From NCBI RefSeq assembly GCF_002113885.1, contig NW_018408761.1, forward strand, positions 997,580 through 1,061,579: a DNA stretch of 64,000 nt, read 5' to 3'. Every line of letters starts with the position of its first letter. The first letter of the stretch is position 1. Made by a program: the position numbers and the translations under genes. Source of the DNA: Mizuhopecten yessoensis (taxonomy: Eukaryota). The notes below the pieces were generated by a model that saw nothing but the letters and a program-made list of their open reading frames with translations, was not told the DNA's origin and searched no databases. Positions 19,591-60,843 of this stretch are shown here, piece by piece.

Positions 19591-19608
19591 AACTACTCTT
19601 TGTTCCAG

Positions 19609-23567: not shown

Positions 23568-23720
23568 AGATGTCAAAATCCAGCTTGAACAGTTTGAAAG
23601 GAAATTTTATTGAGGCAGTCTTTAAATGTTTATATAATTTTTTGTAATGAGTGGTGTCGGAGTTATCTGTGATTTTTTGCCCTGGATAAACGATTTTAGA
23701 TTTTTGTGGCTTTTCAATAG

Positions 23721-25340: not shown

Positions 25341-25384
25341 CTGTCGAGTTTAAAAGTGAATAAATATTAGATTGGAATAATGCA

Positions 25385-26977: not shown

Positions 26978-27391
26978 GACTATGTTCTGCATTAAGGTTC
27001 ATGCAACTTTACATATTTATGTGCTTTTATCAGAAGAAAATGTCCCACAATATTTTTAAATCCTTGACTATGACCTTGACCTCTATGAAATTGCTTTGGG
27101 TCTTAAGTGTGGGAAGTGGACATCCCTGTCTAACAGACACATTTCTAGTTGAACCTGAAAAGAAGTTTCAGTCGTTCAATTGATGACAACCACGAATATG
27201 GGATTTACTCTGAAAAAGGCCTGTATTCTTTGTGTAAGATTAGAAAACAATGTTAGTATATAACAAAAATTCAAGTTATCTGACAGACACATGGTTTAAG
27301 CTGATTTAAGGCTAAGGGGCCAAGCAAATTATATCTCTACACTGAAAAACTTATTTAAAAAACAAAAACGCTAAGATGCAATAAAACTGAC

Positions 27392-27591
27392 CTTGAAATA
27401 GTTGATGGAGAACTTGGGTGTACTGGTGGTGTTAAGGGTTGTGTTACAGTACTCATCTGGTACATCCTGTAGTTGTAGTGTACATCTCCTAGTTGGACAC
27501 GGTTGCTGCCAGCCTGGTACACAAACTTAAACACTACCGCTGTGGTGGCAGCGGTGGGATGTGATAGGTCAGCACTGCATGTGGTGCCAAT
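27392..27591 (-). CDS. Candidate nested gene, exon 2
   Basis: Acceptor ATACCACTACAG|. IGTTCSADLSHPTAATTAVVFKFVYQAGSNRVQLGDVHYNYRMYQMSTVTQPLTPPVHPSSPSTIS. Donor CAAG|GTCAGT, phase 2. Confidence 0.4.
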
Positions 27592-27865
27592 CTGTAGTGG
27601 TATCACATCAGTGGAATAGCATGTCGATGTGAGATTTGTCCACGAGATGATGTCTGTTGTTGTTTAAATCCAAACTGTTTGTTTGGCCTCTTGTCAAATT
27701 TTAAAATGGTAACACTAGTTTTTGACTGACTAGTAGTAAGTTTTGACAAATCAGCCAGTTTGAGCAACTCAGTTGTTTCCATTGTTGCAACGTCCTCTTG
27801 ATTGGGATAAAAGTTCATATAAATCCCTGCCTCACTTAGATGGCTTTCCATGATGTACTTCTCAC

Positions 27866-28459
27866 GGTTGAATTTATCTGGACTCGAGAATTGTATAACA
27901 TTCTTTGAGTCAATAACACTAACACAAGAATAGAACCACTTAACATAATTGTTAGTCCAAGGATCTTGGTAAATAGCAGACATTTTGTGTCAGTTTTTCT
28001 CTTGTTTTTTGATAGTTTCGTGTTCTGCAAATCCTTTTTCGAAAATGTGACACTGATTATGGTCAAGACCTCTAACATCACTGCTATGGCCTTAACCATT
28101 TGTAAAATACTGACTGCCACCTTGCAACATCCTGCAATGTAGACATTAAGGAATATCAATGGAACATTTTCCCATACCAAAATCACATTTGCTCCGTCCA
28201 ATAGCCATGAGGGGAGGTGACTCTCATCCTTCACATCCATAATTATAACAATCACCTCTGTTATGTAAGTCATGGTTCCTATAACAGAGAAGGCAAGAAG
28301 TGATGACATCACACTACATGTACTAGGAAATGGTTCAAATACAAGGCCTTGTTCCAGGCCACTGACCTCATAATAAAACAGCCAATCACAAATTAGGTCA
28401 AAGGTCAACGCCAGAGATGAGATGATGAGAATCAAAATTTTGTTTGTGCGGGAATCCAT
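27866..28459 (-). CDS. Candidate nested antisense gene in PARP4 intron 20, exon 1: multi-pass membrane protein
   Basis: ATG at 28459. MDSRTNKILILIISSLALTFDLICDWLFYYEV...ILGLTIMLSGSILVLVLLTQRMLYNSRVQINST. Five hydrophobic 18-23 aa segments. Donor ACC|GTGAGA, phase 0 (the raw ORF runs on to a stop at 27836). Confidence 0.5.
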
Positions 28460-31334
28460 CTCTGTAGGAAATTCTTGATTTGTTTTGTCTCAACTGGTTA
28501 GTAAATCAAGTACGCTAGTGATGTCTGAAGTATATGTTATAAAATGACACCTCTTTTAGAGCCTATCACTTTTGGCCTCAACCCTTTTCCTATAATAACA
28601 AATGATGATAAATAGAAATACTTGGCGAAATAAAATTAGAGGTTATATATTTTGACAAAAATGATGTTACAAAATTTACTTGGTAAAGTTACCATTCTTG
28701 ATGCAAATCTATGAAGAAAATTGTTATCATTAAACATGTTTACCTATCAGCATTTTCCTGTAATTGTGTTTTTCAGCAAGAATGTTGGAATTTGAAAAAA
28801 TTCAAAAATGATGATATTGACTCTTAAATCAAATCTGGAAGACAAACATATTTTTCATTACACATGAATCGCATGTTGCTTATCGCTTACCTTTTGTAAC
28901 TTTAATAACAAATTTACCTGTATGCACATAGTGGTTTTCCTCGTCTTGAATGTTTATAATCAAGCTGTTTATCCTAGAGGACTTTGAGAAGAAAATGAAG
29001 CCCGCAATATCTTTCTACAACCATGGCTACAAATCTGTCTATTACTGAGATGTAGTAGATGGATTCTCAACAGTTATCTATTATATGAAGATGAGACTAA
29101 GACTGGTTAGTCCTAAGTGTATTTATTCTGTGTTGGGTGGCCCATGTTAAAAGTGATTATTACAGACATGTATTGTAAGTTTGTCTTGTCTTCTTTAAAT
29201 CATTATTGATCCATATGCATATATTTTGGTAATATTTTCTTAATTTAAAAATGATTGTTTACCGTATTCAGACTTCATGTTTGAGTTATGTTAATTTGAC
29301 CCTCCTGTACGGAACTGCAACTGTAGTTCTGGTAATATAACACTTCAGTGATTATTTAATTAAATATATATAAAAACAGATATTTAGCTTTTGACCTTGT
29401 TAACATTATCAATTTAAATTATAGGTTGTTTTTATATAATATGCAGCAATTTTTATGATTATGTGTGACAATATCCTTAATTTGGTAAACTCGTGACGAT
29501 ACAGAAATTGGCTTGTTCTCAGGGTTCACTGTTGGTGCTGTATGGTCTTTTTGTGAACATTGTTTACATTTGTATGAATTAAACATACACATCTCTGTAA
29601 AATTGTTTAGAAGTTTAAAAGTCCACCAGTATTTGTCCGTCCTGTTAACATACACATTTTGTGCTTGTCAGTTAATGTTATTTGTGACAGCTTTTCAACT
29701 GGATTTCTAAACAGTGATATAAGATATCTCTGTAGCTGTGGCTAAATCATCGGAGCAATGTAACGCTCTTTTTTCATTAAAACTGTGTTTAGGAAATAAT
29801 TTTTATGAACAAATTGAGGCAGCATAAGAGGGTTTTACGGTAATTCAACGTAAAGTTTGAAAATATTTATTCAATAAAAGAAAGGTTTTTTCTTATCAAA
29901 AAATTGTATAATTTTGATTTGTTAAATATACTTAAGTATTTGATAAAATATTAAATACTACTTCACTGTCTAAACCAGGCGGTTCAAATATAGATTTTTA
30001 TTTTGTCTAAAATAAGAATTTGGTTCCAGCAATGAAAATCTATTATACCGTTAAACAATTAGACTATCTACCATCCAGAACATGCAGGAAATCGGCTATC
30101 ATTGCTTGGTCCTAGCTAGGAGTGTTTGTCCACACTTATAGTTTTTGGTGATTATTTCAGAATCCAGAAGTCCAAAACTTATGAAATTTTATATGGTGAT
30201 TTACTGTTATATGCACATATGCAATGGTAGTTATAAAAGTTCATAAGGTCAAAGTCAATATGCACATGCATGTGCAATGGGAGTTTAAAAAGAGCGTAAG
30301 GTCAGTCACTATTGCTAAAACTTCATTGCCTGTGTGACCTGTCAGTGTTGCATTTTTAATTGTTGGTTATGCTTCATTTATACATTGTAGCACCATATAA
30401 CCTTGAACCCGTAATCCAAGATTGCAACAAGTCAAGGTCAAGGTCACTGATACTAATAATAAAACAGGAGTGATTTACTGTTAAAACTACATTTTATGAC
30501 TTGGTCAGTGTTTGTTATGATTGCAAATGTTACTTGGCAGATATCCTGTACATCTATAATGCCATATTTCCTTAATCCTGAAATCTAAGATGGCCGACAT
30601 CTATTGCTTCTGACTGGCTGAGACATAACTTTTGTTTTGTTAATACAATTTTGTTCATATGTCATGGAAAATGATGCTTATAAGGGACAGTCCATATGGT
30701 GAATATGAACATATTGTCCGATACCCATGAAACAAGTTGGCTGACATAGTTTCTCATTGGCTGGGGTTTCAACTTTGAAGTCATATTACCTAGTCTGTAA
30801 CTTTTTATTACAATGTTCCAAATTCCTAGTGATCACTGCATAAGACTTTTTCTTCGCAATTTTGCATTCTAGATAAACTGTCAGGATGGGGCCATTATTT
30901 GCTGACCTATATCTGAGTTCTATGTAATTGGTTCCTGATTTAAATACCTACTAAATTGTGTTCACATTGCATAAATCGCATTGTATATACTGCATTACCC
31001 CAAAATAATTTTGATTTTTCCTTATACATAATGTAATTGCATTAAAAAAGCCAAACAACACTTTCAAGGGCATAGTTAATGAATATTTATTCAAAAATAA
31101 TTTTGCACATAACACAGCATTAATGATTATGCTGTAACTTAATTCATCATCAAGCATCCATTCAGAATTTAAAATTAAAAATACTGCGACAAACATTGTG
31201 GTATAATTCACACCTGGGAAAATCATTGCAACAGTAAATATCACATGAAAGAAATGGGATGTTTAAATTTTGAATTGATGTGATTATTGAATAACGTCAA
31301 ATATACTGATTATAATGTTATAATGATATTTCAG

Positions 31335-31522
31335 GCTGTGCAGCCACATTTGGGAGGAAGCAATGTTGATTACCCAGTAGAGTCCTTGTTCCTTCTCAGT
31401 CCAGCAGAGGGCAGCAGGAGTGTCTTCCTCATCTCAGATGGTTACCTTAGCAACAGTGATGTGTTGCTGTCAACAATCAGGAAAGGAAATGCTAAAAATA
31501 GAGTCTTCACCATTGGTGTTGG
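31335..31522 (+). CDS. PARP4: PARP4-like exon 21 (VWA)
   Basis: Acceptor TGATATTTCAG|. AVQPHLGGSNVDYPVESLFLLSPAEGSRSVFLISDGYLSNSDVLLSTIRKGNAKNRVFTIGV(G). Donor TGG|GTAAAT, phase 2. Confidence 0.9.
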
Positions 31523-32388
31523 GTAAATATGGTATATGTAATGATTATTTTGTAAATTAAGATTTTATATGAAAAAGATAAGTTAAGTTTGATCGGTGCG
31601 TTTCATTTATGTTGAATTTCTACTAACCAGTTGGTATTATTCATGGAAGATTGAATTTTGCTATTTTCAAGGCCATTCAAAATTATGAAAATTTAACATC
31701 TAGCCAATATTTAATATTGCTGTCAATTATAACTGCTGTGACTATAAACAGGCCCACATAGAGTGTATAGACATGCTTATAATTACTGCTAAAAAAACAG
31801 GTGACCAAACTTCAACCAGCTGACCATGTTGTGGTGTTGTCGATGTCAGTTTGTTTTCAAACCTTTCCCAAGCAAGGTTGTTATTAAACAATTAGTAAAA
31901 ACAAATGTGATTTACACGCTTTTATTGAAAAGTAAATAAACCTCACCTGTAAATTGGACATGTCCATGACTTGAGGGTTGTGCGGTACTAATCTAACTTG
32001 CCTACAGTATTATAAATCAATTTTACCTAGTTTCAGAGAATTAGATGGGATTGCTATCTAAGTCTGTGCTAGTACCTATACCAAAGTAGCCAGTGACACT
32101 GAAGTTTTGACTTGCTGGTGTTTCAAAAATTTTCATCCCTGTGAAATAGTTCCAATCAAGATAGCTGCATAACATGAGCCCTTTAAAATTAGATTTGAAA
32201 TTAAACAACTATACAGTATGTAAATGGATGTGCAAGTGTTTCACAGGATAGAGGCAGGACGTATGATGTTGAGGTGTAGGCTATTGATTATCAATTGGAA
32301 TTGAAGCATGATGGGTTTTTTCAAAATGTATATAAAGGTATTTATGTGTAAAGTAAGTAATATTTTGAACTTTGATGTTTTTATGAAG

Positions 32389-32488
32389 ACAAAACGTGAA
32401 CCACCACCTGATGCGGAGCCTGGCGTCACGAGGAGGCGGTACCTATTACCATTACAACTATAAGACACGCTCCGTTTGGGAGGCCAGG
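32389..32488 (+). CDS. PARP4: PARP4-like exon 22 (VWA end)
   Basis: Acceptor GTTTTTATGAAG|. (G)QNVNHHLMRSLASRGGGTYYHYNYKTRSVWEAR (compare vertebrate STANRHVLRILSQCGAGVFEYFNAKSKHSWRKQ). Donor AGG|GTGAGT. Confidence 0.85.
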
Positions 32489-33507
32489 GTGAGTGATCCA
32501 GTCTCATCACCTTGTTGTATGAGGCTTTGTTATTGTTGGTTGTAAGCAAGGGAGAAACTCTCAGCATCATCCTGAGAAAATAATCTGACCCAAGCATCTG
32601 CACTAACAAATCTCATATGAAGGATTGTAATTTTAACACAGTACTGGGTCTCTTCTAAAGTGGTGGACGTTTTTTTGTTTCAAACATTACTATACTGTAG
32701 ACCTTGGTTTGAACTCTCATACTAGTAGAATGACTCAGGCATTTATATTCACAAAGTTCACTACAAAGCAAACAGTCATTTAAGTCAGAATGAACAAAAA
32801 ATATAACACTGAGTTCCTTGTTAAATTTCTTTTTGCAAATAATGTTAACGAGCTTTCCTTTAGCATAGGAAAGGGGGTGAGTCTAAATTACAGGTAACAA
32901 ACTTAGTGGTTAAACTATATCATAGTGATCTCAATGTCTTTACTCTAATATACAATTTCGCAACTTTCGTGTTGAGCGATAAACTTCATGTTTTTCCTGC
33001 CATATAATTTCACTGAACCTATTGGAACAGAAGATAATGCCCAAATTCTTCAAGAATTTCTTGAAGTCTCTCAAAAAACAGGGACATAATTCAAATCAGA
33101 GCTTAGTCAATGATTAAAGCTTAATAGGGTAGAAACATGCAGACTAGATCACAAATTAAAAACAAATTTTGCTACTGAAATCATCACATTACATATTGGA
33201 ATACTGGTAGAAGTGGTTCAGTATGATTTACAGAAACAATTATACATATAGATTTGAAATATAGCATTACAAAGAGACAATCTACAGGAAATACGTGTTT
33301 AAAGCTGTCAATCAATATCCATTCCCTTAGTTAACTCATTCACCCCTGATTTCATAATGAATTATTCCAAACTTTGAATTGGAAGAGTTCAAATGTGTCT
33401 TCAGGGGTAATTGAGTTAAATATGATCTCTGAAAATTTCATCTTTAAGAGATATTTAAGAGGTAGTCTTGTACTTCTATGTCACTTTTATGTTTTAATAC
33501 TCTCCAG

Positions 33508-33678
33508 ATGAACACTCAAGTTCAGAAGGCATGCCGTCCAGGTATTTCTGGTGTTAAAGTGGAGTGGCAGCAAAACATGGACACGACCAACAGACCTCTT
33601 CAGGCCCCTAATCACATCCCAAGTTTGTTTTCTGGGTCACGACAGGTCGTGTATGGCTTTGTACCTAACTGTACACAG
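33508..33678 (+). CDS. PARP4: PARP4-like exon 23
   Basis: Acceptor ATACTCTCCAG|. MNTQVQKACRPGISGVKVEWQQNMDTTNRPLQAPNHIPSLFSGSRQVVYGFVPNCTQ (compare vertebrate ..VSVKWQQ...LQAPAQVPSLF...LLVYGFIPHCTQ). Donor CAG|GTGAGA. Confidence 0.9.
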
Positions 33679-35760
33679 GTGAGAATTTTTATTACACTGA
33701 TGTGCTGGTAAGCAGGGGTTCAACTAGTTATATCTTTGTATGGCTTTGTACCTAACTGCACACAGGTGAGAATTTTTATTACACTGATGTGCTGGTAAGC
33801 AGGGGTTCAACTACTCCCCTCGGTAGGGACAAGTTATATCTTTGTATGGCTTTGTACCTAGCTGTACACAGGTGAGACTTTGTATTACACTGATGTACTG
33901 GTAAGCAGGGGTTCAACTACTCACCTCGTTAGGGACAAGTTATATCTTATCTTTGTATGGCTTTGTACCTAACTGTACACAGGCGAGAATTTTTATTACG
34001 AGGATGTGCTGGTAAGCAGGGGTTCAACTACTCGCCTCGTTAGGGACAAGTTATATCTTTGTATGGCTTTGTACCTGAATTTAGGCAGGGGAGGCTTTGT
34101 ATTACACTGATGTGCTGGTAAGCAGGGGCTCAACTACTCACCTCGGTAGGGACAAGTTATATCTTCATATGGCTTTGTACCTAACTGTACACAGGTGAGA
34201 ATTTTTATTACGAGGATGTGCTGGTAAGCAGGGTTTCAACTACTCACCTCGGTAGGGACAAGTTATATCTATGTATGGCTTTGTACCTAACTGTACACAG
34301 GTGAGACTTTTTATTACGAGGATGTGCTGGTAAGCAGGGGTTCAACTACTCCCCTCGGTAGGGACAAGTTATATCTTTGTATGGCTTTGTACCTGAATTT
34401 AGGCAGGGGAGGCTTTGTATTACACTGATGTGCTGGTAAGCAGGGGTTCAACTACTTATTTCTGGTGTTAAAGTGGAGTGGCAGCAAAACATGGACACGA
34501 CCAACAGACCTCTTCAGGCCCCAAATCACATCCCAAGTTTGTTTTCTGGGTCACGACAGGTCGTGTATGGCTTTGTACCTAACTGTACACAAGTGAGAAT
34601 TTTTATTACGAGGATGTGCTGGTAAGCAGGGTTTCAACTACTCACCTCGGTAGGGACAAGTTATATCTTCATATGGCTTTGTACCTAACTGTACACAGGT
34701 GAGAATTTTTATTACACTGATGTGCTGGTAAGCAGGGGTTCAACTACTCCCCTCGGTAGGGACAAGTTATATCTTTGTATGGCTTTGTGCCTAACTGTAC
34801 ACAGGTGAGACTTTGTATTACACTAATGTGCTGGTAAGCAGGGGTTCAACTACTCACATCGGTAGGGACAAGTTATATCACGCTTTATATCTAGATAAAA
34901 TAAAACGAGTTCATTACAAAGATGACCGGACAAAAAATGATGTATTCAATATCAATATCAATATTGATATATCTTTGTATGGCTTTGTACCTAACTGTAC
35001 ACAGGTAAGACTTTGTATTACACTGATGTACTGGTAAGCAGGGGTTCAACTACTTACCTCGTTAGGGACAAGTTATATCTTTGTATGGCTTTGTACCTAA
35101 CTGTGCACAGGTGAGACTTTGTATTACACTGATGTGCTGGTAAGCAGGGATTCAACTAGTTATATCTTTGTATGGCTTTGTACCTAACTGTACACTGGTG
35201 AGACTTTGTATTACGAGGATGTGCTGGTAAGCCGGGGTTCAACTACTCACCTCGGTAGGGACAAGTTATATCTATGTATGGCTTTGTACCTAACTGTACA
35301 CAGGTGACACTTTGTATTACGAGGATGTGCTGGTAAGCAGGGGTTCAACTACTCCCCTCGGTAGGGACAAGTTATATCTTTGTATGGCTTTGTACCTAAC
35401 TGCACACAGGTGAGAATTTTTATTACACTGATGTGCTGGTAAGCAGGGGTTCAACTAGTTATATCTTTGTATGGCTTTGTACCTAACTGCACACAGGTGA
35501 GAATTTTTATTACACTGATGTGCTGGTAAGCAGGGGTTCAACTAGTTATATCTTTGTATGGCTTTGTACCTAACTGCACACAGGTGAGAATTTTTATTAC
35601 ACTGATGTGCTGGTAAGCAGGGGTTCAACTAGTTATATCTTTGTATGGCTTTGTACCTAACTGTGCACAGGTGAGACTTTGTATTACACTGATGTGCTGG
35701 TAAGCAGGGGTTCAACTACTCACATCGGTAGGGACAAGTTATATCACGCTTTATATCTAG
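33543..35760 (+). repeat. Minisatellite (about 86-110 bp unit, about 19 copies) seeded from the last codons plus 5' splice site of exon 23; includes a 136-nt second copy of the exon 3' part at 34457-34592
   Basis: Each unit starts with TATGGCTTTGTACCTAACTGTACACAG|GTGAGA (YGFVPNCTQ plus donor). It continues with ATTTTTATTACACTGATGTGCTGGTAAGCAGGGGTTCAACTAC(TCACCTCGGTAGGGACAA)GTTATATCTTTG. Confidence 0.9.
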
Positions 35761-35920
35761 ATAAAATAAAACGAGTTCATTACAAAGCTGACAGGACCAA
35801 AAATGATGTATTCAATATCAATATCAATATTGATTATATTAGGAGACTGTAAGTGCAGAATTAAGTTCTTTGCAAAGGGGTTTTTAATGTGTGGTGGAAC
35901 TGGAATGGGTTGATTGTCGG

Positions 35921-36010
35921 TGGCCAGGTAGCTCAAATAGTAGTGTCTGTCTAGTGTTGTGAGGGTTCCAGGTTTGAACCCCAGTCTGGCCATTGCATTT
36001 CTGTTTTGCA
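35921..36010 (+). mobile_element. tRNA-derived SINE head (degenerate A and B boxes)
   Basis: GGCCAGGTAGCTCAAATAGTAG...GGTTCCAGGTTTGAACCCCAGTCTGGCCATTGCATTTC. A related, better preserved copy lies at 62690-62790. Confidence 0.45.
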
Positions 36011-36078
36011 ACAAATGTATTGTTGTGTCTGGTTGTAATTTGGTTAGTCTGTTTAATGAAGAAGGTAAAAAGGTTATA

Positions 36079-37118
36079 TTAGCTCACCTATGAGCTTATG
36101 GTATGGCGTGTTGTCACTCGTCTGTCATCCGCCCGTCATTGAGTCTGTCGTTCATCGTCCCATCAACGTTTTCTTTGAATGGCTTGTTCTCAAGAACTGG
36201 AGGACCTAGGGCCATGATATTTGTTCAGTAGGTACCTGGGACAGAGTGCTGTAATATTTTCTCAAATAAATGACCTTAACTTACTTTCTATGTCACAGGG
36301 GTTAAATATATAAAAAAACCTTTAAACAACTTCTTCTGAATAACCAGGAGGCCCAGAGTAATAATACTAGGTCAGTATGTACCTGGCATGAAGTGCTATA
36401 AAGTGTCCTCAAACAAATGACCTTGACTTACTTTCAAGGTCACAGGGGTCAAATGTGTTTAAAAACCTTTAAAACATCTTCTTCTGAATTTCTGAATAAC
36501 CAGTAGGCTAAGAGTCATGATATTTGGTTTGGCCAGTAGGTTCATGGGACAGAGTGCTATAAGTTTTCCTCCAATAAATAACCTTGACCTACTTTCAAGG
36601 TCATGGGTTAAATATGTAAAAAATAAATTAAACATCTTCTTCTAAATAACCAGGAAGCCCAAAGTAATAATACTTGGCCAGTAGGTACCTGGCATGAAGT
36701 GCTATAAAGTTTCCTCAAATAAATGATCTTGACATACTTTCAATGTCACAGGGTTCAAAATTGTAAAAATCTTTAAACAACTTCTTCTGAATAGCTAAGA
36801 GGCTTAGAGCAATGATATTTGGCTAGTAGGTACCTGGGACAGAATGCTATCACGTTTCCTCATATAAATTACCTAGACCTCCTTTACAGTCACAGGGTTC
36901 AAATATGTGAATACTTCTTCTGCAATACCAGGATGCCCTCATTGATGATGTTTGACAAGTAGCATGCTGGGATAGAGTAGTATAAAGCTTCATTTAGTCT
37001 GGAGCATTCTTAAGCCAAGGAAACTCAATATATTAAAATATTTACAAAAGTACTTTTATTGAGAATATTTTCCCATGATTGCTCAAATAACCAGGTGAGT
37101 GATAAGAGGGCCTCTTGT
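36079..37118 (+). mobile_element. Composite non-autonomous element, family A, with approximately 120-140-bp internal units
   Basis: Head TTAGCTCACCTATGAGCTTATGGTATGGCGTG. Tail AACCAGGTGAGTGATAAGAGGGCCTCTTGTA. The internal units are related to those at 20571-21494. Confidence 0.65.
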
Positions 37119-37340
37119 AAAATGATTAAAGAGTTTCTCCATTTCAGAATGTTGTCAGTCTGTTAGAGATATATATAGATGGTAATATTTGCCTCGGACA
37201 AATAACAAACTTACAATGTCGGATCATACCAAGGTAAATATCTCTTTGTAACAATAACAAACTTACAATGTCGGATCATAACAAGGTAAATATCTCTTTG
37301 TAACAATAACAAATTACAGCAACCATCATTTATTTTACAG

Positions 37341-37421
37341 GCCTATTTGAAGGCAACTGTGGACAACATGGAGGTTTCTACGATGGTAGCAACAACAGAA
37401 CTCAACATTACACAAGGAGAG
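37341..37421 (+). CDS. PARP4: PARP4-like exon 24
   Basis: Acceptor TTTATTTTACAG|. AYLKATVDNMEVSTMVATTELNITQGE (compare vertebrate ..EFRTMVSTTELQKTTGT). Donor GAG|GTAATC. Confidence 0.85.
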
Positions 37422-37803
37422 GTAATCAACATCAATTAGAAATGGAAAATGTATTCTATTATAATATCTCATTGCTTGTGAACAGAACTCCTTTTTCAAC
37501 ATCTCGTTCATTCAGATAAATTAAAGTCTATCTACCAGAAGCATAACATTTACATCAGACTTCCAAAGGTGAATTCAAAGCATTTCTCTTGGTTGTCATT
37601 TATATTTACTTGATATTTTGTACTTTACACCACAAGCTTTCTAGTTAATTAAATCAGATTATCAGGGCCCTAGCTGGTGATTTTTATGTGAGTAAATAAA
37701 TTCTACAACCTGTGTGAAAGTTTGATGGAATAGCAGCATTGAAAACAATGTTACCTGTTTTACATGTAGTTCTCTCCCCTGATTGGATATATTTTGTCCC
37801 CAG

Positions 37804-37884
37804 ATGCTGCATCAGCTGACGGCTCGTGCGGTGATCCGTGACTACGAGGATGGCATCCTTTGTGAGGACAAGATACAACAGCGG
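37804..37884 (+). CDS. PARP4: PARP4-like exon 25
   Basis: Acceptor TTTTGTCCCCAG|. MLHQLTARAVIRDYEDGILCEDKIQQR (compare vertebrate MIHKLAARALIRDYEDGILHE). Donor CGG|GTAGGT. Confidence 0.9.
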
Positions 37885-38640
37885 GTAGGTACTCGTGCAA
37901 ACATAATCTCTTATTTTGCAATTATTCAAATGCTATTGGTACAAATTCTCAAGAAACACAAAAAAAAAAATCATAACATTAAATTACTTTTGAATAATTG
38001 AAATAATACAGAGTTGGCTGTTGGCTGTCATTGACCGTGACAAAAGGTGGATTGTTGTTCTGATGGTACTTACCAAACATACAAAACTTGTTTGCAAAGC
38101 TGTCCTTTCTGGTTTGGTCCTCTATACATCAACTAGCCAAAGATATTGCAATGATTCCCATGAAGGTTTTGTTGTAATGATTGAATCATTGCAATTAACT
38201 TAGTCATGATGAATGGATACAACCAATATTTCAGATCTAGTATTATCAAAGTTTTGTTAGTGTATAACCTGTTTCTCCATGATCAAAGAATTTTAACGTG
38301 TTTGGTGCCAACTCATGCTGGATATCTTATAGACTCTATACTGCAGATAACTCTGACCAAGATCACTGTTTCCAAGTGCTTCCATTGTGCTAAACCCTTG
38401 GTTAACGGTTACTATCCCATTGTTCTATAGATTAACCTGAAGAGAAATTCCATCTAGCCGAATCAGTAACAAAGTTTCTAAATAATTCACCACTTTGACA
38501 TAGCCCTCCATGGAAGGACCTGACCCCTAAGACTTCAGTGACAACCATAATTATGCCTTTAAGAGTAAGGCTAAAGAGATGATAAAACATAGTATTGTGA
38601 TCACATTGTAAGCACCAGTGTATACGTAACTGAGATCCTT

Positions 38641-39365
38641 ATTTCTCTTACCCTGGACAGGTGTATACACACTTTTCCTGTTGTGAGTTTATAATAGAAT
38701 CTTTCACCCCAAAGGGTGAGATGAGGGAATCTCAACCCGAGGGGGAAGATTCTTAAGTTGACAGCAAAGCCTCAGGTTCGGCAACTTAGGAGAATCTCAA
38801 CCATTCTTTCCCTGAGGGTTGAGATTCTCCTATCTCACCCCCAGGGGGATGAGAGATTATTTTTCTCTTACCCTGTTCTTGCATTGTGTATAATATACAT
38901 ATTGTAATGTTACAGGCTAAATTCAGGGTTGACGTGACGTTGATGGATTGTTTATGTGACGTCATACCATTGTTATGAATAGGGGAATCCCCCCGTTTCA
39001 ACCCTAGGGTGTGACATTGATATATCACACCGGTAAAAGTGTGGATACACCTGTCCAGGGTAAGAGAAATCCTTGTCTTTCCTAGGGTTGAGACGGGGGG
39101 ATTCCCCTATTCATAACAACTGTATGACGTTACGTCAACATTACATCAGCATCATGTCAACAACGTATTATATGATACACAATGAGTGAACAGGGTATTA
39201 AGAGAAAAATAATTATTGACCCGCTTGTGGTTGAGATTGGGGAAATATTCTTAAGTTGCCTTACACTCGGCAAAACCTCATGTTTGTCAACTTAAGAATC
39301 GTCCCCATCATGTTGAGATTCCGCTATCTCACCCGCAAGGGGTGAGAGATTCTATTATTCCAAGT
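38641..39365. mobile_element. Long imperfect palindrome / foldback element in intron 25
   Basis: TTTCTCTTACCCTGGACAGGTGTATACACACTTTT (38641-38675) versus AAAAGTGTGGATACACCTGTCCAGGGTAAGAGAAA (39035-39069). Also about 38690-39010 is mirrored as a reverse complement at about 39078-39365. For example, TTGTTATGAATAGGGGAATCCCCCCGTTTCAACCCTAGG matches CCTAGGGTTGAGACGGGGGGATTCCCCTATTCATAACAA. Confidence 0.65.
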
Positions 39366-39537
39366 TCACCCGCTAGGTCTCTAATCCAGATTTACAAAAT
39401 TCAAATCCATTCTAAACTTTCTCCTAATTATCAGAGTCAACAAGTGATTAGATGCTTCTCTACTTTGACAATCAGAAAGCCAGTACTAGCTGAATAAGTT
39501 CTCAGAATTGATTTCAGTATGAACTGTGCTTCTTCAG

Positions 39538-39639
39538 GTGCTGAAACAGGAGAGAAAGAACACCATTATACAGCTGAGCACGGAGTACTCCATTGTGACC
39601 CCCTACACCAGCTTTGTGGCCATTGAGGAAAGAGATCAG
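39538..39639 (+). CDS. PARP4: PARP4-like exon 26
   Basis: Acceptor GTGCTTCTTCAG|. VLKQERKNTIIQLSTEYSIVTPYTSFVAIEERDQ (compare vertebrate ..LSKENSLITQFTSFVAVEKRDE). Donor CAG|GTATTT. Confidence 0.9.
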
Positions 39640-40474
39640 GTATTTACAGTGTTAATAACTTGTATCTCTTGTACAGATCTGGGAAATATTAAGGGATTCC
39701 TTTACAACCTTTGGTTGGTTGGTTCACATGTTTATCAGTCAGTGTGGGGGAGGGGGGTTAAGTGGCCTTTACAAACCCTCCTAGTCATGTGTGTCTATGC
39801 ATGATCCCCACGGCACTCCTATCCCTAAGCAATCCTGTGAATGCTTCTTATATATATATTTATATACCAGATGCAAATTAAAGTCAACCTGTCTTTGTCA
39901 GCACCTCTGTTAATAAGCAGACACTTCTCTAATCCTGCCACTGTTAAGGAATATAGTACTGTATAACATGAAATGTTCGATGTGTATAAACATTCGAGGT
40001 TTTCGTGGTTTCTATTGAATCACGAAAATAAATTCAAACAAATTTGAATGATATAAGTGTCTACTGTTTGTTATTATAGGATATCCACAAAAGTTTGTAC
40101 CATGAAACGATCTAAATGGCTTCAATCCACTAAGGAAAATAGCCACGAACATTTTGTGTTATACAGTATTATAGTTATAGTCAAACAATTAATTAGAACT
40201 TGTATAATAGCCACTTGTATTCAGCAGCCACTTTTGACGATCCCTAAATCAGGTTTTACCATACAATACCTTGTCGATCTTGAATAACTAGGCCCACTGA
40301 GGACGACTCATCTTACATATGAAACAACATCTGTTGATATCTGAAATAACACACAAAATTGTCCAACTGTAATGACTTTTTTATGCTGCTTGACATTGTT
40401 TTATCATATTATTGAACTTTTTATCAAACAGCACATGAAAACATAAAATTGTTTGTGTTTCTTACCATTGTCAG

Positions 40475-40582
40475 GATGAGCAGATAACAGATGGACCATC
40501 TATTGATGACCTGGTTGCTGAGGAATCTGTAGACATTTTGGATTATGTAGGCTGGCAGAACCCTGATTTCTTTGATGAAAAG
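40475..40582 (+). CDS. PARP4: PARP4-like exon 27
   Basis: Acceptor CTTACCATTGTCAG|. DEQITDGPSIDDLVAEESVDILDYVGWQNPDFFDEK (compare vertebrate ..ELIAKEDVDFLPYMSWQGEPQ). Donor AAG|GTAAGT. Confidence 0.75.
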
Positions 40583-41235
40583 GTAAGTTCACCATAACTC
40601 TCTCTTTTTGTTAGATTCCTGATGATACCTGATTTAGTTTGTTTTAAATTTTCAAAATTCTTCATTAATAGGTTTGAATATTTTGATATGGTGAAATGTC
40701 AGGATATGTTAGTTAAAAGAAATTCTGTAGAATTTTCACTTCAAAATTGTAGAAATAATTGGGTCCCAGTGGAGGATTTAAAGTAAATCTTGTAAATTCT
40801 ATTCCTTTAGTACCAATGTAAGGATATTCTTTTTATTAATGGAGGGTGTGGACCCACTTAGGGCTGAGAGACAGGGCTCAGTTAGGGAAGTAATGTCAAA
40901 TAAAAACTTGAAAATCCTATTCCTTTGATACTGGTTAAGTTCTTTTTACCAAAGTTATTCTGTGCTCCTTAAGGGGACTCAATAATGTATTAATGGAGGG
41001 TGTCGACCCTCTGAGGGTGGAGTGGCAGGGCTCAATTCGAAAAATAAAATGTTATTCTTCCTTTTTCAGTACTGGTTAAGGGATTTTAACCAAATTTGGT
41101 CTTGGGGCTTAGGGGAGGGAATTGATTGTTGCATAAACATTTAAGTGTGTAGCACAACAAAATTATGAATAAAAGTGAAGTACAATAAGATCAACATAGC
41201 ATTTAATTTTGTTTGCTTGTTTGATTCTGATCTAG

Positions 41236-41382
41236 GAGCCAGAAGAAATTGTAGAGGAACTGTTAAGAAAAGCTTTGATTGCAGAGAGCTTCTCACAACA
41301 GGAGGCAAATAGAACCTATGCCTCTATCTTAGATTACAAATCCTGTCTTCAAAACGATGCCAACAACGAACTCAAAGAAAAG
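41236..41382 (+). CDS. PARP4: PARP4-like exon 28 (lineage-specific linker; no homology recognised)
   Basis: Acceptor TTGATTCTGATCTAG|. EPEEIVEELLRKALIAESFSQQEANRTYASILDYKSCLQNDANNELKEK. Donor AAG|GTAACT. Phase 0 to 0. Confidence 0.6.
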
Positions 41383-41443
41383 GTAACTGCACTGAATTTG
41401 ATGAAAAACAAGTCAGCCATACTTTATAATTTGTCATTGCTTT

Positions 41444-41855
41444 TTATGCACCTACCATAAAATGGGGGGGGGGGGGGGCATATATAGTGTTGCCCATGTC
41501 TGTCCTGTCCCGTTCCGGTTCAATGTAAACACCCGTCCCGTCCCATCCCATCCCGTCACTCTTGTTGGCCCTTGCCACAACTCATACTGATCACTCTTGT
41601 TGGCCCTTGCCACAACTCATACTGATCACTCTAGATCTTGTTGGCCCTTGTTACAACTCATACTGATCATTCTTGTTGGCCCTTGTTACAACTCATACTG
41701 ATCACTCTTGTTGGCCCGGATGTTAGCGTGCAGGGAGTCTTACTGTTGGAGGAAACTAGTGTTCCCGGAGAAAACCCACATGATCGGGTTGGTGACCCAT
41801 ACCTTTTCACGTCTGATTGGGGAATCGAACCCTGGCCGCCTTAGTGAAATTGAAC
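41444..41855. mobile_element. Element sharing its head with 57419-58000 (TTATGC.CC.ACCATAAAATGGGG..GGCATATATAGTGTT.CCCATGTCTGTCC); poly-G tract, 4 copies of a 30-bp unit, tRNA-like end
   Basis: G14 run at about 41466-41479. Four copies of CTCTTGTTGGCCCTTGCCACAACTCATACTGATCA. The right end, ..GGGGAATCGAACCCTGGCCGCC, is the reverse complement of a T-arm-like GGGTTCGATTCCCC. The right boundary is uncertain. Confidence 0.45.
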
Positions 41856-41999
41856 ATTGATTAACGTGTAAGTTCATAGACTAAATTGAATAATGTGTCA
41901 AGACAGTCCTTGTAAAGCTTATATACATATATACTTAAATCAAGTGTTGAACAAGCTGGGAAGTATATATTTTTACCTTGTATGTTTTTGTTTTCAAAG

Positions 42000-42087
42000 G
42001 TTATGGAAGCAGCTGAAAGATTTTTCTCCTGTTCTAAAGATGACATTAGCCAAAATATGTTGGCAGAGTTTCGGAAAAGTTTTCCTT
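42000..42087 (+). CDS. PARP4: PARP4-like exon 29 (leader of the ubiquitin-like module)
   Basis: Acceptor GTTTTTGTTTTCAAAG|. VMEAAERFFSCSKDDISQNMLAEFRKSFP(F). Donor CCTT|GTAAGT, phase 1. This is the only frame compatible with both neighbouring exons. It contains an in-frame ATG at 42003. Confidence 0.6.
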
Positions 42088-42549
42088 GTAAGTATTAAAA
42101 TATGTTACTTAATATGTAAATGAGTGATAAGCTAGACAGACTATCCTGTATGTGCAGATTTGGCAGAGAAGTTAACACTCATGTCTCCCACAAACGCTGG
42201 AATGCAATCCCTTGAGCTATTTTAGCATGGATTTTCATTCCTCAGAGCTTTTGCAGCATAGATTTTTCAGAGAACATGTTTTTCTCCAATAATCCAGACG
42301 GAGAATTAAATTGTCTGCAGTGGGTGCTATAGTGACTGGGATGTAACAATCAAGTGAGATGTCACTGTGGTGAAAGATTTAATTAATACACCAGCCCACT
42401 GCACGACACAAACAAATGGAGATTTAGACGGAGCCTTTCCTTCTAATGTCTGTAGTTACTGTGTACCAGATGTTGATAATACTCTTTTCATATCAAAATA
42501 TATTTTGAAAAAAGAATTGATGAAAGTTTTACATTTATTCCCATTGCAG

Positions 42550-42726
42550 TCCCAATCGAGATACACACCCTGACTGGTAGGACTATCCCCGTGAGTGTGT
42601 CCGAGGGCGACACCGTGTCTGACTTGAAGAATAAGATCCATCAGATAGATGGACTTGACCCAGAGCAGCAGAGATTGATTGTTGGTGGGAAACCGCTGAA
42701 GGATCTCGCTGTTCTCTCCGATCTTG
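42550..42726 (+). CDS. PARP4: PARP4-like exon 30 (ubiquitin-like domain, first three quarters)
   Basis: Acceptor TTATTCCCATTGCAG|. (F)PIEIHTLTGRTIPVSVSEGDTVSDLKNKIHQIDGLDPEQQRLIVGGKPLKDLAVLSDL, which aligns with ubiquitin [58 protein letters not shown]. Donor CTTG|GTAATT, phase 1. Confidence 0.85.
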
Positions 42727-46593: not shown

Positions 46594-46694
46594 ATCTGGA
46601 GTATAATGCTGTCTTCCTGTTACCAAGGCTGCGAGGGGGACTTAGTTTTGGTCTCAAGGAAGATTTGAAAACAAAGCGTATTCTCGCGGAAAAC
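46594..46694 (+). CDS. PARP4: PARP4-like exon 31 (ubiquitin-like domain C-terminus with RLRGG)
   Basis: Acceptor TTTTCTATATTCTTCAG|. (D)LEYNAVFLLPRLRGGLSFGLKEDLKTKRILAEN. RLRGG is at 46626-46640. Donor AAC|GTATGA, phase 0. Read-through of the donor gives V then TGA. Confidence 0.8.
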
Positions 46695-51232: not shown

Positions 51233-51459
51233 GACATGAATGAGTATGATCAGATATATGGTAAGAAGGTGCATACGGAAAAGGACAAAAGCTGTACTGA
51301 TGATGGAAAAAACCCGGTGAAGATGTCCTCATTGTTTTCTCCTTTTAGGCAATCCTTACGAATGATGGCTCCAAGGAAACAGTTAGCAACCAAAGCTGCC
51401 AGAAAATCTGCACCTGCAAACTTTGATGAAAATGAGGAGGAGCAGAATGAGGATGACAG

Positions 51460-51497
<38 letters not shown>

Positions 51498-54313
51498 TTG
51501 AAAAGATGGGCAACTTTAGCTGCATGGCACTTCCAGATGACAACGTGGTTGATGATGCTACGAACAAGAAACAGGAAGTGTCAGATGTAGGAAGAATACC
51601 AGACTCTCCACTCTCAGCAACACAGTTTGGCCCCTTGTCTCCAAAATGTTCAGATTCATTTGGTACAAACTTTGAAAAATTTGAAATCTCTCAGTATTTA
51701 GATGAAGACATGGAGATTGATTTAGATACTGAAGACCCGGCATTCCTCATTCTCACTTCTGAAATATCTGACATATTTTCACCTTCAATGGCAGGCCATT
51801 CTCAGGACACTCCAGCCTATATATCAACCTCCCCATCTTACAAACCAACTTCCCCATCCTATTCGCCCACTTCCCCATCTTACAAACCAACTTCCCCATC
51901 CTATTCGCCCACCTCCCCATCTTACAAACCAACTTCCCCATCCTATTCGCCCACCTCCCCATCTTACAAACCAACTTCTCTATCCTATTCGCCCACTTCC
52001 CCATCTTACAAACCAACTTCTCCATCCTATTCACCAAATAGAAGAGCACGAAGAGCCAAATCAACATTTGAGGATTTCCAACATGAATCAACATCAAACA
52101 ATAAAGATTTTGTGGTTTCAGGTTCAAGACAAGCAAAGTCAAGCAGCACATCTAGTGAACATGGTTTGTGTGGAGCTCCAGTGCAAGCAGAACCAGGCAG
52201 TAAACCAAGTCAGAGCTTCAATTTTAATGCTTCGCTACAAACAGCATCAAGCAATGAACCAACACAAAGTTTGGGATTGGGGGCTCCAAACCTAGCAGAA
52301 CTAGGCGGTAAACCAAGTCAGGGGTTCAATTTTAGTGCTCCTCTAGTAACAGCATCAAGAAATATATCAACACAAAGTTTGGGATTGGGGGCTCCAAACC
52401 TAGCAGAACCAAACACAATGCCAAGTCAAGGGTTTTCCTTTGGAGCTCGAATGCAAACAACTCAAAGCGCTTCACCAGCCGAAGGTTTCAGTTTTTCTCA
52501 GAATCAAACATTGCAGAGCATTACCAGTAAAGGAAGCCATTGTTTTGGATTTGGGACTTCAAAACCAGCCGGAGCAAGCAGAACGACAAGTCAAGGGTTT
52601 TCCTTTGGCGCTCAAATGCAGTCCCAACGATGCAATATACCAACCCAAGATTTCTATTTTGGAGCTTCAAATTCAGCAGGTTTTGGAGATGACGGTGACA
52701 GACGTGGTGGTTATGGAGGTGTCAGTGTTAGACCTGGTGGTTATGGAGATGACAGTGACAGACGTGGTGGTTATGGAGGTGTCAGTGTTAGACGTGGTGG
52801 TTATGGAGGTGTCAGTGAGGGACTTGGTGGTTATGGAGGTGTCAGTGTTAGACGTGGTAGTTATGGAGGTGACAGTGTTAGATGTGGTGGTTATGGAGGT
52901 GTCAGTGAGGAATGTGGTGGTTATGGAGGTGTCAGTGAGGGACTTGGTAGTTATGGAGGTGTCAGTGAGGGACTTGGTAGTTATGGAGATGACGGTGTCG
53001 GACGTGGTGGTTATGGAGATGACAGTGTCGGACGTGGTGGTTATGGAGGTGACAGTGTCGGAGGTGATGGTTATGGAGGTGTCAGTGAGGGATTTGGTGG
53101 TTATGGAGGTGACAGTGAGGGATGTGGTGGTTATGGAGGTGTCAGTGTTAGATGTGGTGGTTATGGAGGTGTCAGTGAGGGACGTGGTGGTTATGGAGGT
53201 GACAGTGAGGGACGTGGTGGTCCTAGACTTGCTGGTTCTAAAGATGGACATGTTTCTTACATAGAAACAGCACCAACATTTACATATTTGAAGGATCTTG
53301 ACTTGAATTTAGCAAAACATGATCCAAAAACTAGGATATTGAAGGAAAATGACAGAAGACCTTCCAGTGTAACAGAGAAGGATCTGCCTTCACAGCCTTT
53401 CAGACATGTACAGGATAAAATGTTCCCACCAGACTTTGATGAATCCTTATTACCTAAACAAAAGAGAAAAATTCCTCCTGTTGGAAGAGGAGGTTCTGGA
53501 TTCACTGCAAGGAATGACCAGGGTCCTGCTGAAACAACCAAAGAACAAGGTCGAAGGTCATTAAAGTCAGTCAGAGGCGCAATGCATGGTGCAAGATCAA
53601 GAGACAGAAATAGGGAACAATCTCGTGAGCTTATTGTGCTGGATAAGAGTAAAAAACTAAGTTTGAGTCATGACAGAAGGCGGAGGAGTTTGAGTAGAAG
53701 TTTGAGTCGAGACAGAAGACAGAGGAGTTTGAGTAGAAGTTTGAGTCGAGACAGAAGGCGGAGGAGTTTGAGTAGAAGTTTGAGTCGAGACAGAAGGCGG
53801 AGGAGTTTGAGTAGAAGTTTGAGTCGAGGAAGGGGGAGAAGAGACTTGGAAAGATGTTACAGTAGAGATAGAGCAAGAAAGGAAAATAAAAAAATGCACA
53901 GATCAAGTGGAAATAATGATACAAACAGTAGGAATAAAAATAGGGACAAAGCAGGAAGCAAAATAGACAGAGATCCTGCAAGAGAAAGTAAGAAACAGAT
54001 AAAGCATAAAAATGAAAAGAAGGAGCAAACAAAGGCTGATGAACAGGTTGTCAAAACATTTGGGAAAAAAGGGAAGAAAAGGGAACAGACAAGGGATGAT
54101 GAAGAGATTGTCAAAACTGGAGGGAAGAACCTGTCAGGAAAGTTGGAATATGATGATCATGAGAAAATGGACTTTACAGTGGACATGGCACCAACTTTGA
54201 AAGTCTGGGATGTAACATCAGAGACAGGCAAGGACATTGTGAAATTCATAAAGTATATTTCTGATTCAATCTTCTTTTATATACAAAAGATCTGTAATTT
54301 TCTACAAATTCAA
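51233..54313 (+). CDS. PARP4: PARP4-like exon 32: 3081-nt low-complexity exon (H3-tail copy, poly-Asp, CTD-like heptads, FG-like, GGYGG, RS and Lys-rich modules)
   Basis: Acceptor TTCTGTATTTCAG| with phase 0 from exon 31. Single open frame of 1027 codons (the track ORF 51236-54337 is the same frame). Donor CAA|GTGAGC after ..KICNFLQIQ (compare vertebrate PARP4 ..SCFLQIK..). An alternative weaker donor is ATCT|GTAATT after 54293. Confidence 0.8.
51368..51418 (+). other. Histone H3 tail copy: [17 protein letters not shown] (identical to H3 residues 15-31)
   Basis: Direct translation of GCT CCA AGG AAA CAG TTA GCA ACC AAA GCT GCC AGA AAA TCT GCA CCT GCA in the exon 32 frame. Confidence 0.9.
51461..51496 (+). 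repeat. (GAT)12 coding microsatellite, poly-Asp tract
   Basis: Twelve uninterrupted GAT codons within [18 protein letters not shown]. Confidence 0.95.
51824..52039 (+). repeat. RNA polymerase II CTD-like heptad array (42-bp two-heptad unit, about 10 heptads)
   Basis: [72 protein letters not shown]. Confidence 0.9.
52214..52687 (+). other. FG-nucleoporin-like segment
   Basis: SFNF, GFNFS, GFSFG, GFSFS, CFGFG, GFSFG, FYFG and AGFG motifs, separated by uncharged S/T/Q/N/A/G/P-rich spacers. Includes a 34-aa duplicated unit ([20 protein letters not shown]). Confidence 0.7.
52700..53221 (+). repeat. 30-bp coding tandem repeat, about 17 copies of the decapeptide (R/L/C)GGYGG(V/D)S(V/E)(R/G)
   Basis: [50 protein letters not shown]...[14 protein letters not shown]. 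Other frames on both strands stay open across it because of the repeat. Confidence 0.9.
53657..53833 (+). repeat. 42-bp coding tandem repeat, 4 copies of [14 protein letters not shown] (RS-domain-like)
   Basis: [62 protein letters not shown]. Confidence 0.9.
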
Positions 54314-54344
54314 GTGAGCTTAAGTGAACTTTCTTGATTAGCTT

Positions 54345-58913: not shown

Positions 58914-59013
58914 GGACAATATTGGGAACTGACTCCAGAGCTGTGTCAAACCCTCGGTGTTTTCTACATCAAGGTCACCAACCAGCTGAAGCTACATGGC
59001 CTGTACTCCTTAG
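58914..59013 (+). CDS. PARP4: PARP4-like exon 35 (C-terminal vault-interaction-like region)
   Basis: Acceptor TTCTTGTGTTTCACAG|. GQYWELTPELCQTLGVFYIKVTNQLKLHGLYSL(G) (compare vertebrate DGFWKLTPELGLILNLNTNGLHSFLKQKGIQSLG). Donor TTAG|GTATGT, phase 1. Confidence 0.85.
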
Positions 59014-60475: not shown

Positions 60476-60843
60476 GAAGCCATGCTGCATCCTTAGGAGA
60501 AAACATGGTAGCAACATATCTTGTGGTCCTCAAGATAATACAGATCATTTACCAGCAGATGAACAGAAAACCACTGAAATTGGACCTGGCCGGATTTGCG
60601 TCTTTGGACTTGATGAACTGGACATTGAATTGTAACAATACCCTGTCCATCAAGTTAGATACTACGCGGTCAACAGGATGCTCAGCGGTGTTGTATCTCC
60701 ACAATGAAATATCAGGTGTTCACAAATGGTTGACCGAGAAGCGTGGTGAACATGAACGACTCTGTAGGCAGTTAGAACTAGGACATTCCTTACAAACTTT
60801 CACTTGGAACCTTTTCTGTGCTCTCAACGAAAAGCCAGTCTGA
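60476..60843 (+). CDS. PARP4: PARP4-like exon 36 (last coding exon)
   Basis: Acceptor AATCTGTGTTGTAG|. (G)SHAASLGENMVATYLVVLKIIQIIYQQMNRKPLKLDL...SAVLYLHNEISGVHKWLTEKRGEHERLCRQLELGHSLQTFTWNLFCALNEKPV. Stop TGA at 60841-60843. Compare vertebrate ..LLDLIATMLVLQFIRTRLEKEG...AFEAIKQASEWVRRTEGQYPSICPRLELGNDW. Confidence 0.85.

Follow-up and report, generated by a model that had tools for sequence, protein, structure and literature searches.

A 64,000-nucleotide stretch of the Mizuhopecten yessoensis genome (RefSeq assembly GCF_002113885.1, contig NW_018408761.1, positions 997,580 to 1,061,579 of the forward strand; hereafter the window) contains a PARP4-like (vault PARP) gene, and one large internal exon of this gene encodes a tandem array of heptads of the type found in the CTD (C-terminal domain) of RPB1, the largest subunit of RNA polymerase II (Pol II). 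The heptads sit in a linker exon between the vWA/ubiquitin-like part of the protein and a MINT-like domain. The same exon carries a copy of part of the histone H3 tail and several other repeats. Heptads and other short copies of host peptides were also found in the linkers of PARP4-like proteins of several phyla. We read the array as a putative Pol II CTD bait within a modular series of host-peptide mimics, a function that we judge from sequence and hold with evenly balanced confidence.

Sequence and repeat structure of the heptad array

The array starts with STSPS, continues through nine full heptads (51839-52027) and closes with a truncated YSPN. A sequence-only reading of the region had reported CTD heptads alternating between YSPTSPS and YKPTSPS; its translation was reproduced exactly in the frame of the long open reading frame (ORF), with one heptad reading YKPTSLS. 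The nine full heptads are four YKPTSPS, one YKPTSLS (at 51965) and four YSPTSPS in strict alternation. The exact consensus is thus present in four of nine, and lysine occupies position 2 in the remaining five. Y1, P3, T4, S5, P6 and S7 are retained in eight of the nine heptads, YKPTSLS having leucine at position 6, and Ser5-Pro6 is found in every heptad except this one.

At the DNA level, Tandem Repeats Finder reported a period of 42 bp at 51827-52032 (4.9 copies, 96% matches, 0 indels), and a period of 21 bp fitted the heptad DNA poorly (67% matches). Among the first four 42-bp units, pairwise differences amount to 0-3 bases, and the fifth unit is degenerate. The two heptads within one unit differ at 6-7 of 21 bases (TAC/TAT, AAA/TCG, CCA/CCC, TCC/TCT). 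The near identity of the 42-bp units, together with the divergence of the heptads inside each, indicated that an older di-heptad (Y-K-PTSPS / Y-S-PTSPS) was amplified recently. A 32-base core of the unit occurred four times, at this locus only, with 0 occurrences expected from 100 shuffles. We concluded that the array grew in place from one older 42-bp di-heptad through recent tandem amplification, and the earlier view of the array as a recently expanded two-heptad repeat agrees with these numbers. An ORF on the minus strand over the repeat (51753-52151) was rejected as a by-product of the repeat; the plus frame belongs to the exon with 1042 codons.

Likeness to the RNA polymerase II CTD and its limits

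The isolated heptad block passed the Pfam profile PF05001 (RNA_pol_Rpb1_R) with 34.8 bits against a cut-off of 20.3. Its matches in PDB were only RPB1 chains and CTD peptides, besides one short match to a chain deposited as CDK7. When the whole ORF was searched against 5.8 billion proteins, all 120 matches listed were RPB1, each covering only 2-10% of the query. Pfam gave no match on the whole 1042-codon ORF, which holds no RPB1 core domain and no RPB1 linker, flanking or tip sequence.

The in-register tandem heptads, four of them exact consensus, are therefore alike to the CTD in sequence, but the array differs from it in place, length and composition. It lies inside a PARP4-like gene, not at the C-terminus of RPB1 after the polymerase core and linker; it has 9 repeats, compared with 26-52 in RPB1; and the Ser2 of nearly every RPB1 heptad is replaced by lysine in five of nine. 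In 120 RPB1 proteins, position 2 was serine in 94% of the heptads and lysine in 1 of 4292. The sequence-only reading had taken the array for a rare CTD mimic able to bind or titrate CTD-interacting domains. What held of this was the likeness in sequence and the presence of a CTD-type heptad array in an open frame. YKPTSPS turned out to be no normal CTD heptad, and the array turned out to be no isolated oddity, being one module among host-peptide mimics in a PARP4 linker.

A related case is that of Sen1 and Trf4, in which Nrd1-interaction motifs are described as mimics of the CTD (PMC7110113, PMC4186968). Judged by sequence, the likeness is that a protein other than RPB1 displays a CTD-like peptide usable by a CTD-interaction domain. 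The Sen1/Trf4 motifs are reportedly single, degenerate and part of the transcription-termination machinery, whereas here a perfect multi-copy array is carried by an ADP-ribosyltransferase.

The heptad exon belongs to a PARP4-like gene

Since the search with the whole ORF gave RPB1 only, a second query combined the upstream exons with those parts of the big exon that are not repetitive. Its best matches were PARP4-like proteins, with E values down to 1e-184, and bivalves were at the top: Mytilus (about 45% identity), followed by unionids and Pinctada. The gene spans about 4.8-60.8 kb of the window on the plus strand. Pfam signatures of PARP, VIT and VWA_3 are located in upstream exons on the same strand as the heptad exon, and the Pfam matches and collinear exons together give the PARP4 core order of BRCT, PARP catalytic domain, VIT and vWA.

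Downstream of this core, two exons form a ubiquitin-like unit, which scored 58.6 bits on PF00240 when joined. Both exons and the big exon have AG/GT borders and can be joined without a stop. The ORF of the big exon is 1042 codons from stop to stop (51209-54334), about 1030 of which belong to the exon, and the other two plus frames across it contain 37 and 117 stops. The exon is composed of low-complexity repeats. Residues 1830-1896 of the Sinanodonta PARP4-like protein align to 51242-51412. For the C-terminal domain, Pfam gave no match, and it was identified with a small profile against PDB: the profile, made of the last two exons and two orthologues, matched residues 1584-1634 and 1664-1704 of human PARP4 in solved vault structures (E 3.2e-9). 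We assign it as a predicted MVP-interacting (MINT) domain. The earlier claim that the heptads lie in the coding frame of a PARP4-like gene is supported by the long ORF and by flanking exons collinear with PARP4-like proteins.

The ubiquitin-like unit keeps RLRGG yet runs on into the linker, like a linear ubiquitin fusion, and exact ...HLVLRLRGG is retained in many mollusc orthologues. Cutting by a deubiquitinase after RLRGG would part the catalytic body from the linker and MINT. At the other end of the big exon, the stretch at about 54180-54290 on the plus strand bears a loose resemblance to the sequence with which the MINT-like exon at 58914 begins (GQYWELTPELCQTLG); it may be the decayed remnant of a duplication or an alternative 3' end.

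Heptads recur in the linkers of other PARP4-like proteins

A survey of PARP4 orthologues, proposed as a check by the sequence-only reading, showed that heptads recur in the same linker across several phyla. They were found in PARP4-like linkers of the bivalves Sinanodonta, Potamilus and Mactra, the sea urchins Strongylocentrotus and Lytechinus, the crinoids Antedon and Anneissia, and the sponge Oscarella. The heptads of Mactra (...EEMGFGLFDDEPLYSPTSPTYSPVSPTY) are split by an intron, those of Lytechinus are in register, the segment of Anneissia reads TSPRYSPTSPA, and the protein model of Antedon has seven heptads. The MINT-like domain was detected in five of these eight heptad-bearing tails, with the heptads upstream of it.

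In-register heptads were present in 5-9 of 102 PARP4 tails and in none of the bodies of the same proteins. In 300 composition-preserving shuffles, the stricter heptad pattern was obtained 0 times and the looser pattern once. The recurrence of heptads in the same linker of several phyla argues for selection rather than accident.

The unionid heptad pair differs from the di-heptad unit of the window at position 2, where it has glutamine for lysine. The occurrence of this pair at the corresponding place suggests an old origin of the di-heptad within bivalves. In Antedon mediterranea, a separate exon holds the heptads (locus L001, 16782-16961), and the next exon carries an actin fragment. The heptad DNA of Antedon is a 21-bp array of 10 copies with 94% identity, which uses AGT serine codons, compared with TCN in the window. 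With a separate 21-bp array and different serine codons, the crinoid amplification is independent of that in the bivalve, and the Antedon array is probably of independent origin. The 21-bp array (16718-16926) starts 64 bases upstream of the first base aligned with the protein (16782), and the model may lack some heptads of the true exon (YSATSPG, YSVTSPG...).

The linkers are mosaics of host-peptide mimics

In the window, the segment identical to H3.1 residues 15-31 covers K18, K23, K27 and S28; 135 residues separate it from the heptads downstream, and an acidic D/E run comes after it at 51452-51496. FG, GGY and RS arrays downstream of the heptads resemble nucleoporin FG regions, RGG/GY regions and SR-protein regions, respectively, and Pfam gave no match for any of them. 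All these further modules of the exon are either tandem arrays of recent age or short copies of disordered host peptides that are well known.

Histone mimics known so far are 4-6 residues long. The ARSK tail of influenza NS1 and ARKT of G9a are reportedly such mimics. The H3 segment is like them in that a non-histone protein displays an H3-tail sequence, but here 17 identical residues are found on a host protein and stand alongside other mimics.

To see which host peptides occur in other linkers, 120 PARP4 matches were scanned with a fuzzy search for reference peptides, and tails were inspected. H3-tail mimics were found in linkers of Mytilus (KKQSARKSTGGKCPRIQ), Sinanodonta, Batillaria (SRTRQTARRSTGGRAPRY) and Littorina. 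The unionid orthologues have a degenerate H3 15-31 segment with an acidic patch after each, and other gastropod and mussel tails mimic H3 residues about 2-18 instead. The tail of the ribosomal P-stalk (SDDDMGFGLFD-like) was present in ten scanned proteins, including one of the fish Fundulus, and was also seen in Mactra (analysis labels P0127, P0137, P0140, P0141 for Mactra, P0156, P0159, P0166, P0217, P0230 and P0233). This peptide is internal in the linkers of gastropods, bivalves, echinoderms, a sponge and one fish, and in Mactra it stands immediately before the CTD heptads. The ubiquitin end LRLRGG or a close variant occurred in 13 scanned PARP4-like proteins.

Actin residues about 20-70, the region of the D-loop, were found inside the linker of 25 PARP4-like proteins (labels P0131-P0225) of sponges, cnidarians, echinoderms, hemichordates and molluscs, with no whole actin domain in them. 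In Antedon, the fragment (P0148 residues 1368-1397, L001 17317-17502) is a separate exon right after the heptad exon. Precomputed Pfam annotation of PARP4-like proteins listed actin, 14-3-3, ubiquitin, synaptobrevin, HSP70, ribosomal P, Snf7, WH2 and EF-hand. The synaptobrevin domains were listed for two proteins other than that of Mactra. A Mactra segment, LRKLKNIAVDIGQEIENQSKLVDSIEG (P0141 about 1278-1315, locus L002 37243-37356), matched only C-terminal SNARE motifs of SNAP-25/SNAP-29 in PDB, with weak E values of 0.08-0.66. Repeats of the type GFSFG are present in the tail of the Mytilus orthologue, and the unionid orthologues have RS-rich tracts at the same position as in the window. The modules vary among species and paralogues, as do the heptads, whose arrays expanded separately in the bivalve and the crinoid.

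Perina et al. (2014, PMC4245714) reported PARP4-like proteins with 14-3-3, actin and ubiquitin-related domains, in which they saw connections to host pathways. Those proteins share with the present case extra segments that derive from conserved host proteins and are placed C-terminal to the VIT-vWA core. They differ in that whole domains tied to cytoskeleton and signalling were described; short peptide modules and their position in a hypervariable linker are absent from that account (PMC4245714). Our searches of the open-access literature turned up no account of PARP4 carrying mimics of the CTD, H3 or the P-stalk.

Hypervariability of the linker and its vertebrate counterpart

When two unionid orthologues were compared, identity was 90% in the body, 92% in the ubiquitin-like unit and 86% in MINT, and 57% with 79 gap columns in the linker. 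When the 702 residues of the exon that are not repetitive were searched with HMMER against 1.8 billion representatives, one marginal match was obtained (E 4.8e-4). By this search, the linker has no homologues that can be aligned beyond its short modules.

In vertebrates, the largest PARP4 exon (exon 30 in human) codes for more than 300 disordered residues located between vWA and the domain that binds MVP (Daugherty et al. 2014, PMC4038475). This region is highly variable in length and sequence and has been under recurrent positive selection, and it was proposed that the exon recognises pathogen factors for ADP-ribosylation or sequestration in the vault (PMC4038475). The big exon of the window is the positional counterpart of this exon: it is a single large, disordered, hypervariable exon at the same position in the same family. 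The two differ in that no recognisable host-peptide mimics have been described in the vertebrate exon (PMC4038475), and in that the mollusc exon is about three times longer, contains CTD heptads and an H3 tail, and has a ubiquitin-like unit before it. Positive selection is a vertebrate result; hypervariability in molluscs is seen here from the identity comparison and the homologue search.

Putative baits on a vault PARP

With the heptads being one module among several host-peptide mimics, their function, as predicted from this sequence context, would most likely be that of a bait on a vault PARP and not that of a transcription-related titrator. The linker would be a series of short mimics of highly conserved host peptides, in which the heptads form the Pol II CTD module, and the recent expansion of the heptads would give a multivalent CTD bait. 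Proteins that recognise the CTD would be captured close to the ADP-ribosyltransferase domain, on or inside the vault, where modification or sequestration would follow. Candidate clients are CTD-exploiting factors of pathogens or, on the host side, CTD kinases, phosphatases and readers. The vault protein TEP1 reportedly has a TIR-like NADase related to an antiphage defence system (2026 preprint). Because of this relation, the hypervariability of the linker and the positive selection in vertebrates, we favour pathogen-derived clients over host ones.

Integrated decoys and baits are known from plant NLR-ID receptors, TRIM5-cyclophilin A fusions and the protease 'tripwire' linkers of NLRP1/CARD8. 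In these systems, host structures that are bound or cut by pathogens are duplicated on a receptor or effector enzyme, often within a part that evolves fast. Likewise, the H3 15-31 segment, the CTD heptads and the ubiquitin-like unit are copies of host sequences outside the catalytic and structural core, and the lineage-specific gain, loss and expansion of modules is also seen in PARP4 linkers. The differences are that the carrier is a vault PARP, that the baits are short disordered peptides in series, and that the case is known here from sequence alone.

A wider version of the proposal, in which we have rather less than even confidence, extends it across animals. In this version, PARP4 linkers would carry integrated baits, each a short copy of one of the best conserved host peptides which pathogens or toxins bind, cut or need as cofactors (Pol II CTD, H3 tail, ubiquitin C-terminus, actin D-loop, P-stalk tail, SNARE motifs and 14-3-3), and these baits would be tethered next to an ADP-ribosyltransferase at the vault wall. 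PARP4 and the vault would together be an innate immune trap with specificity rewritten by gain, loss and tandem expansion of modules, and the heptad array of the window would be a recent expansion directed against a factor that binds the CTD and belongs to a mollusc pathogen such as a herpes-like virus.

Several observations weigh against the bait function. Every second heptad has lysine in place of Ser2, a residue almost never found there in real CTDs, so that no more than half of the repeats would be open to readers dependent on Ser2. Between the two unionids, identity is 73% in the heptad stretch and 61.5% in the H3 mimic, which is conservation little or no better than in the rest of the tail (57%). 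The closest ubiquitin-type orthologues, those of Mytilus, are without heptads, and the gene models of the orthologues are computational predictions. In human vaults, the domain adjoining the linker is fixed to the inner vault wall, which makes the access of clients uncertain. Finally, the modules of the window (H3 tail, CTD, FG, RGG and RS) are all of the nuclear disordered type, and an endogenous role in localisation would account for them equally well.

Alternative explanations

Such an endogenous role is the best of the alternatives, although we consider it somewhat unlikely. Sticky disordered modules would send PARP4 to nuclear transcription or splicing condensates or to the pore, or would serve as multi-site substrates of proline-directed kinases and Pin1 that control PARP4 or its association with the vault, with no pathogen involved. 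The condensate-forming character of the modules in the exon, the S-P sites of the heptads (Ser5-Pro6 in all but YKPTSLS) and NLS-like (nuclear localisation signal) basic patches, RRARRAK and KQKRK, in the same exon fit this explanation, as does the reading of appended actin and 14-3-3 domains as links to host pathways (Perina et al., PMC4245714). It leaves unexplained the cytoplasmic fragments in orthologous linkers (actin D-loop, P-stalk tail, SNARE motifs, 14-3-3), the fast turnover of the linker next to a conserved body and MINT, and the positive selection in vertebrates.

If the array were a neutral by-product, replication slippage of a stretch rich in S, P, T and Y in a weakly constrained exon would have produced a CTD match with no function. 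Near-identical 42-bp units, four other young tandem arrays in the same exon, the very fast evolution of the tail and the modest conservation of the unionid heptads are what slippage would give. However, in-register heptads occur in 5-9 of 102 tails, but in 0-1 of 300 shuffles and in none of the bodies. The crinoid amplified heptads separately with other codons, the array in the window kept its frame with 0 indels, and a 17/17 copy of H3 15-31 and a ubiquitin-like unit ending in RLRGG nearby cannot come from slippage. We regard this explanation as unlikely.

Recent capture of a piece of an RPB1 gene, by retrocopy or exon shuffling, would leave an array still resembling its source, and four heptads are indeed exact consensus; the heptad exon of Antedon beside an actin-fragment exon is also what exon shuffling would give. 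As the main origin it was rejected, because the array grew in place from a single di-heptad and YKPTSPS is nearly absent from RPB1 (1 of 4292). In addition, the related pair with glutamine in distant bivalves indicates that the unit is old, and no linker or flanking sequence of RPB1 accompanies the heptads, RPB1 matches covering only a small part of the ORF. Recent capture is very improbable. Least credible of all is an artefact, namely an assembly error in copy number or frame or an unexpressed pseudo-exon: tandem repeats are prone to collapse or expansion and the exact ORF product is without a record in the contig collection, but the repeat copies bear distinct substitutions, 1042 codons are open across five different repeat arrays, in-frame PARP4 exons supported by orthologues lie on both sides, and orthologues have the same kind of linker.

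Significance

To our knowledge, it has been unclear for decades what PARP4 and the vault particle do, and the sole evolutionary clue that we know of has been the positively selected, disordered exon of vertebrate PARP4, with nothing recognisable inside. The corresponding linkers of Mizuhopecten and of many further invertebrates are readable: they contain exact or near-exact copies of known host peptides, including the Pol II CTD heptad, and these modules are concrete candidates for ligands in the function of PARP4 and the vault. The hypervariable exon of PARP4, appended host domains, and CTD and histone mimicry are already known; we found no earlier account of CTD heptads or H3 tail mimics in a PARP4 linker. 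As far as our literature search showed, this would be the first report of a multi-copy, consensus-grade CTD array outside RPB1. That heptads expanded independently in two phyla hints that it pays to mimic the CTD. Even if the bait reading is wrong, the exon illustrates how a disordered region of chimeric make-up is assembled by tandem amplification and the shuffling of modules.

Feature coordinates and neighbouring sequences

Table 1. Features of the PARP4-like gene and its heptad exon, in window coordinates.
Feature	Position	Strand	Evidence or remark
PARP4-like gene body: BRCT, PARP catalytic, VIT and vWA exons	4792..42726	+	tblastn with four bivalve PARP4-like proteins, collinear from 4792 to 42740; Pfam PARP, VIT and VWA_3
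Ubiquitin-like unit, exon 1	42550..42726	+	Pfam ubiquitin; AG/GT borders, in-frame joining
Ubiquitin-like unit, exon 2	46594..46694	+	Ends ...FLLPRLRGG, then LSFGLKEDLKTKRILAEN; phase 0 join to big exon
Large internal exon, disordered linker	51233..54334	+	Acceptor tttcag|GAC at 51233; 3' limit taken as ORF close
Histone H3 tail mimic (H3.1 residues 15-31)	51368..51418	+	17/17 identical to H3 peptides and nucleosome H3 chains (PDB)
CTD-type heptad array	51824..52039	+	Translation, Tandem Repeats Finder, Pfam PF05001, PDB matches
FG-type repeats (GFNF, GFSFG, CFGFG, DFYFG), partly a 108-bp tandem repeat	52208..52687	+	Repeat finder, translation
GGYGG(V/D)S(E/V)(G/R) repeats, 30-bp period, about 18 copies, Gly/Tyr/Arg-rich	52700..53221	+	
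Arginine/serine repeats, 39-bp period, 4.4 copies	53672..53842	+	
MINT-like domain, first detected exon (GQYWELTPELCQTLG...)	58914..59013	+	Collinear tblastn matches of five orthologues
MINT-like domain, last exon (...LELGHSLQTF...), stop TGA	60476..60843	+	In-frame junction with 58914-59013

One PARP4 exon (…GVKVEWQQNMDTTNRPLQAPNHIPSLFSGSRQVVYGFVPNCTQ) is present twice in nearly identical form, about 1 kb apart (33466-33708, 34440-34622, 34795-35034 and 35661-35849, plus strand). In the repeat 34795-35034 / 35661-35849, the first copy holds a remnant of the last residues of the exon (YGFVPNCTQ). The doubled exon could be a segmental duplication or a pair of mutually exclusive exons.

Among the intron repeats, three tandem 321-bp copies with an open frame lie at 14969-15826 on the plus strand. 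The region 44400-50400 is rich in repeats on both strands, and many diverged copies of a short ORF family (…KDFKEFAMFPLLGP…) are found at 44-48 kb. Satellites of 134 bp and 63 bp occupy 50535-51050, directly upstream of the big exon. Upstream of the PARP4-like gene, a frame of 474 codons with an SDSDSDSDS run (1230-2651, minus strand) is probably a separate neighbouring gene.

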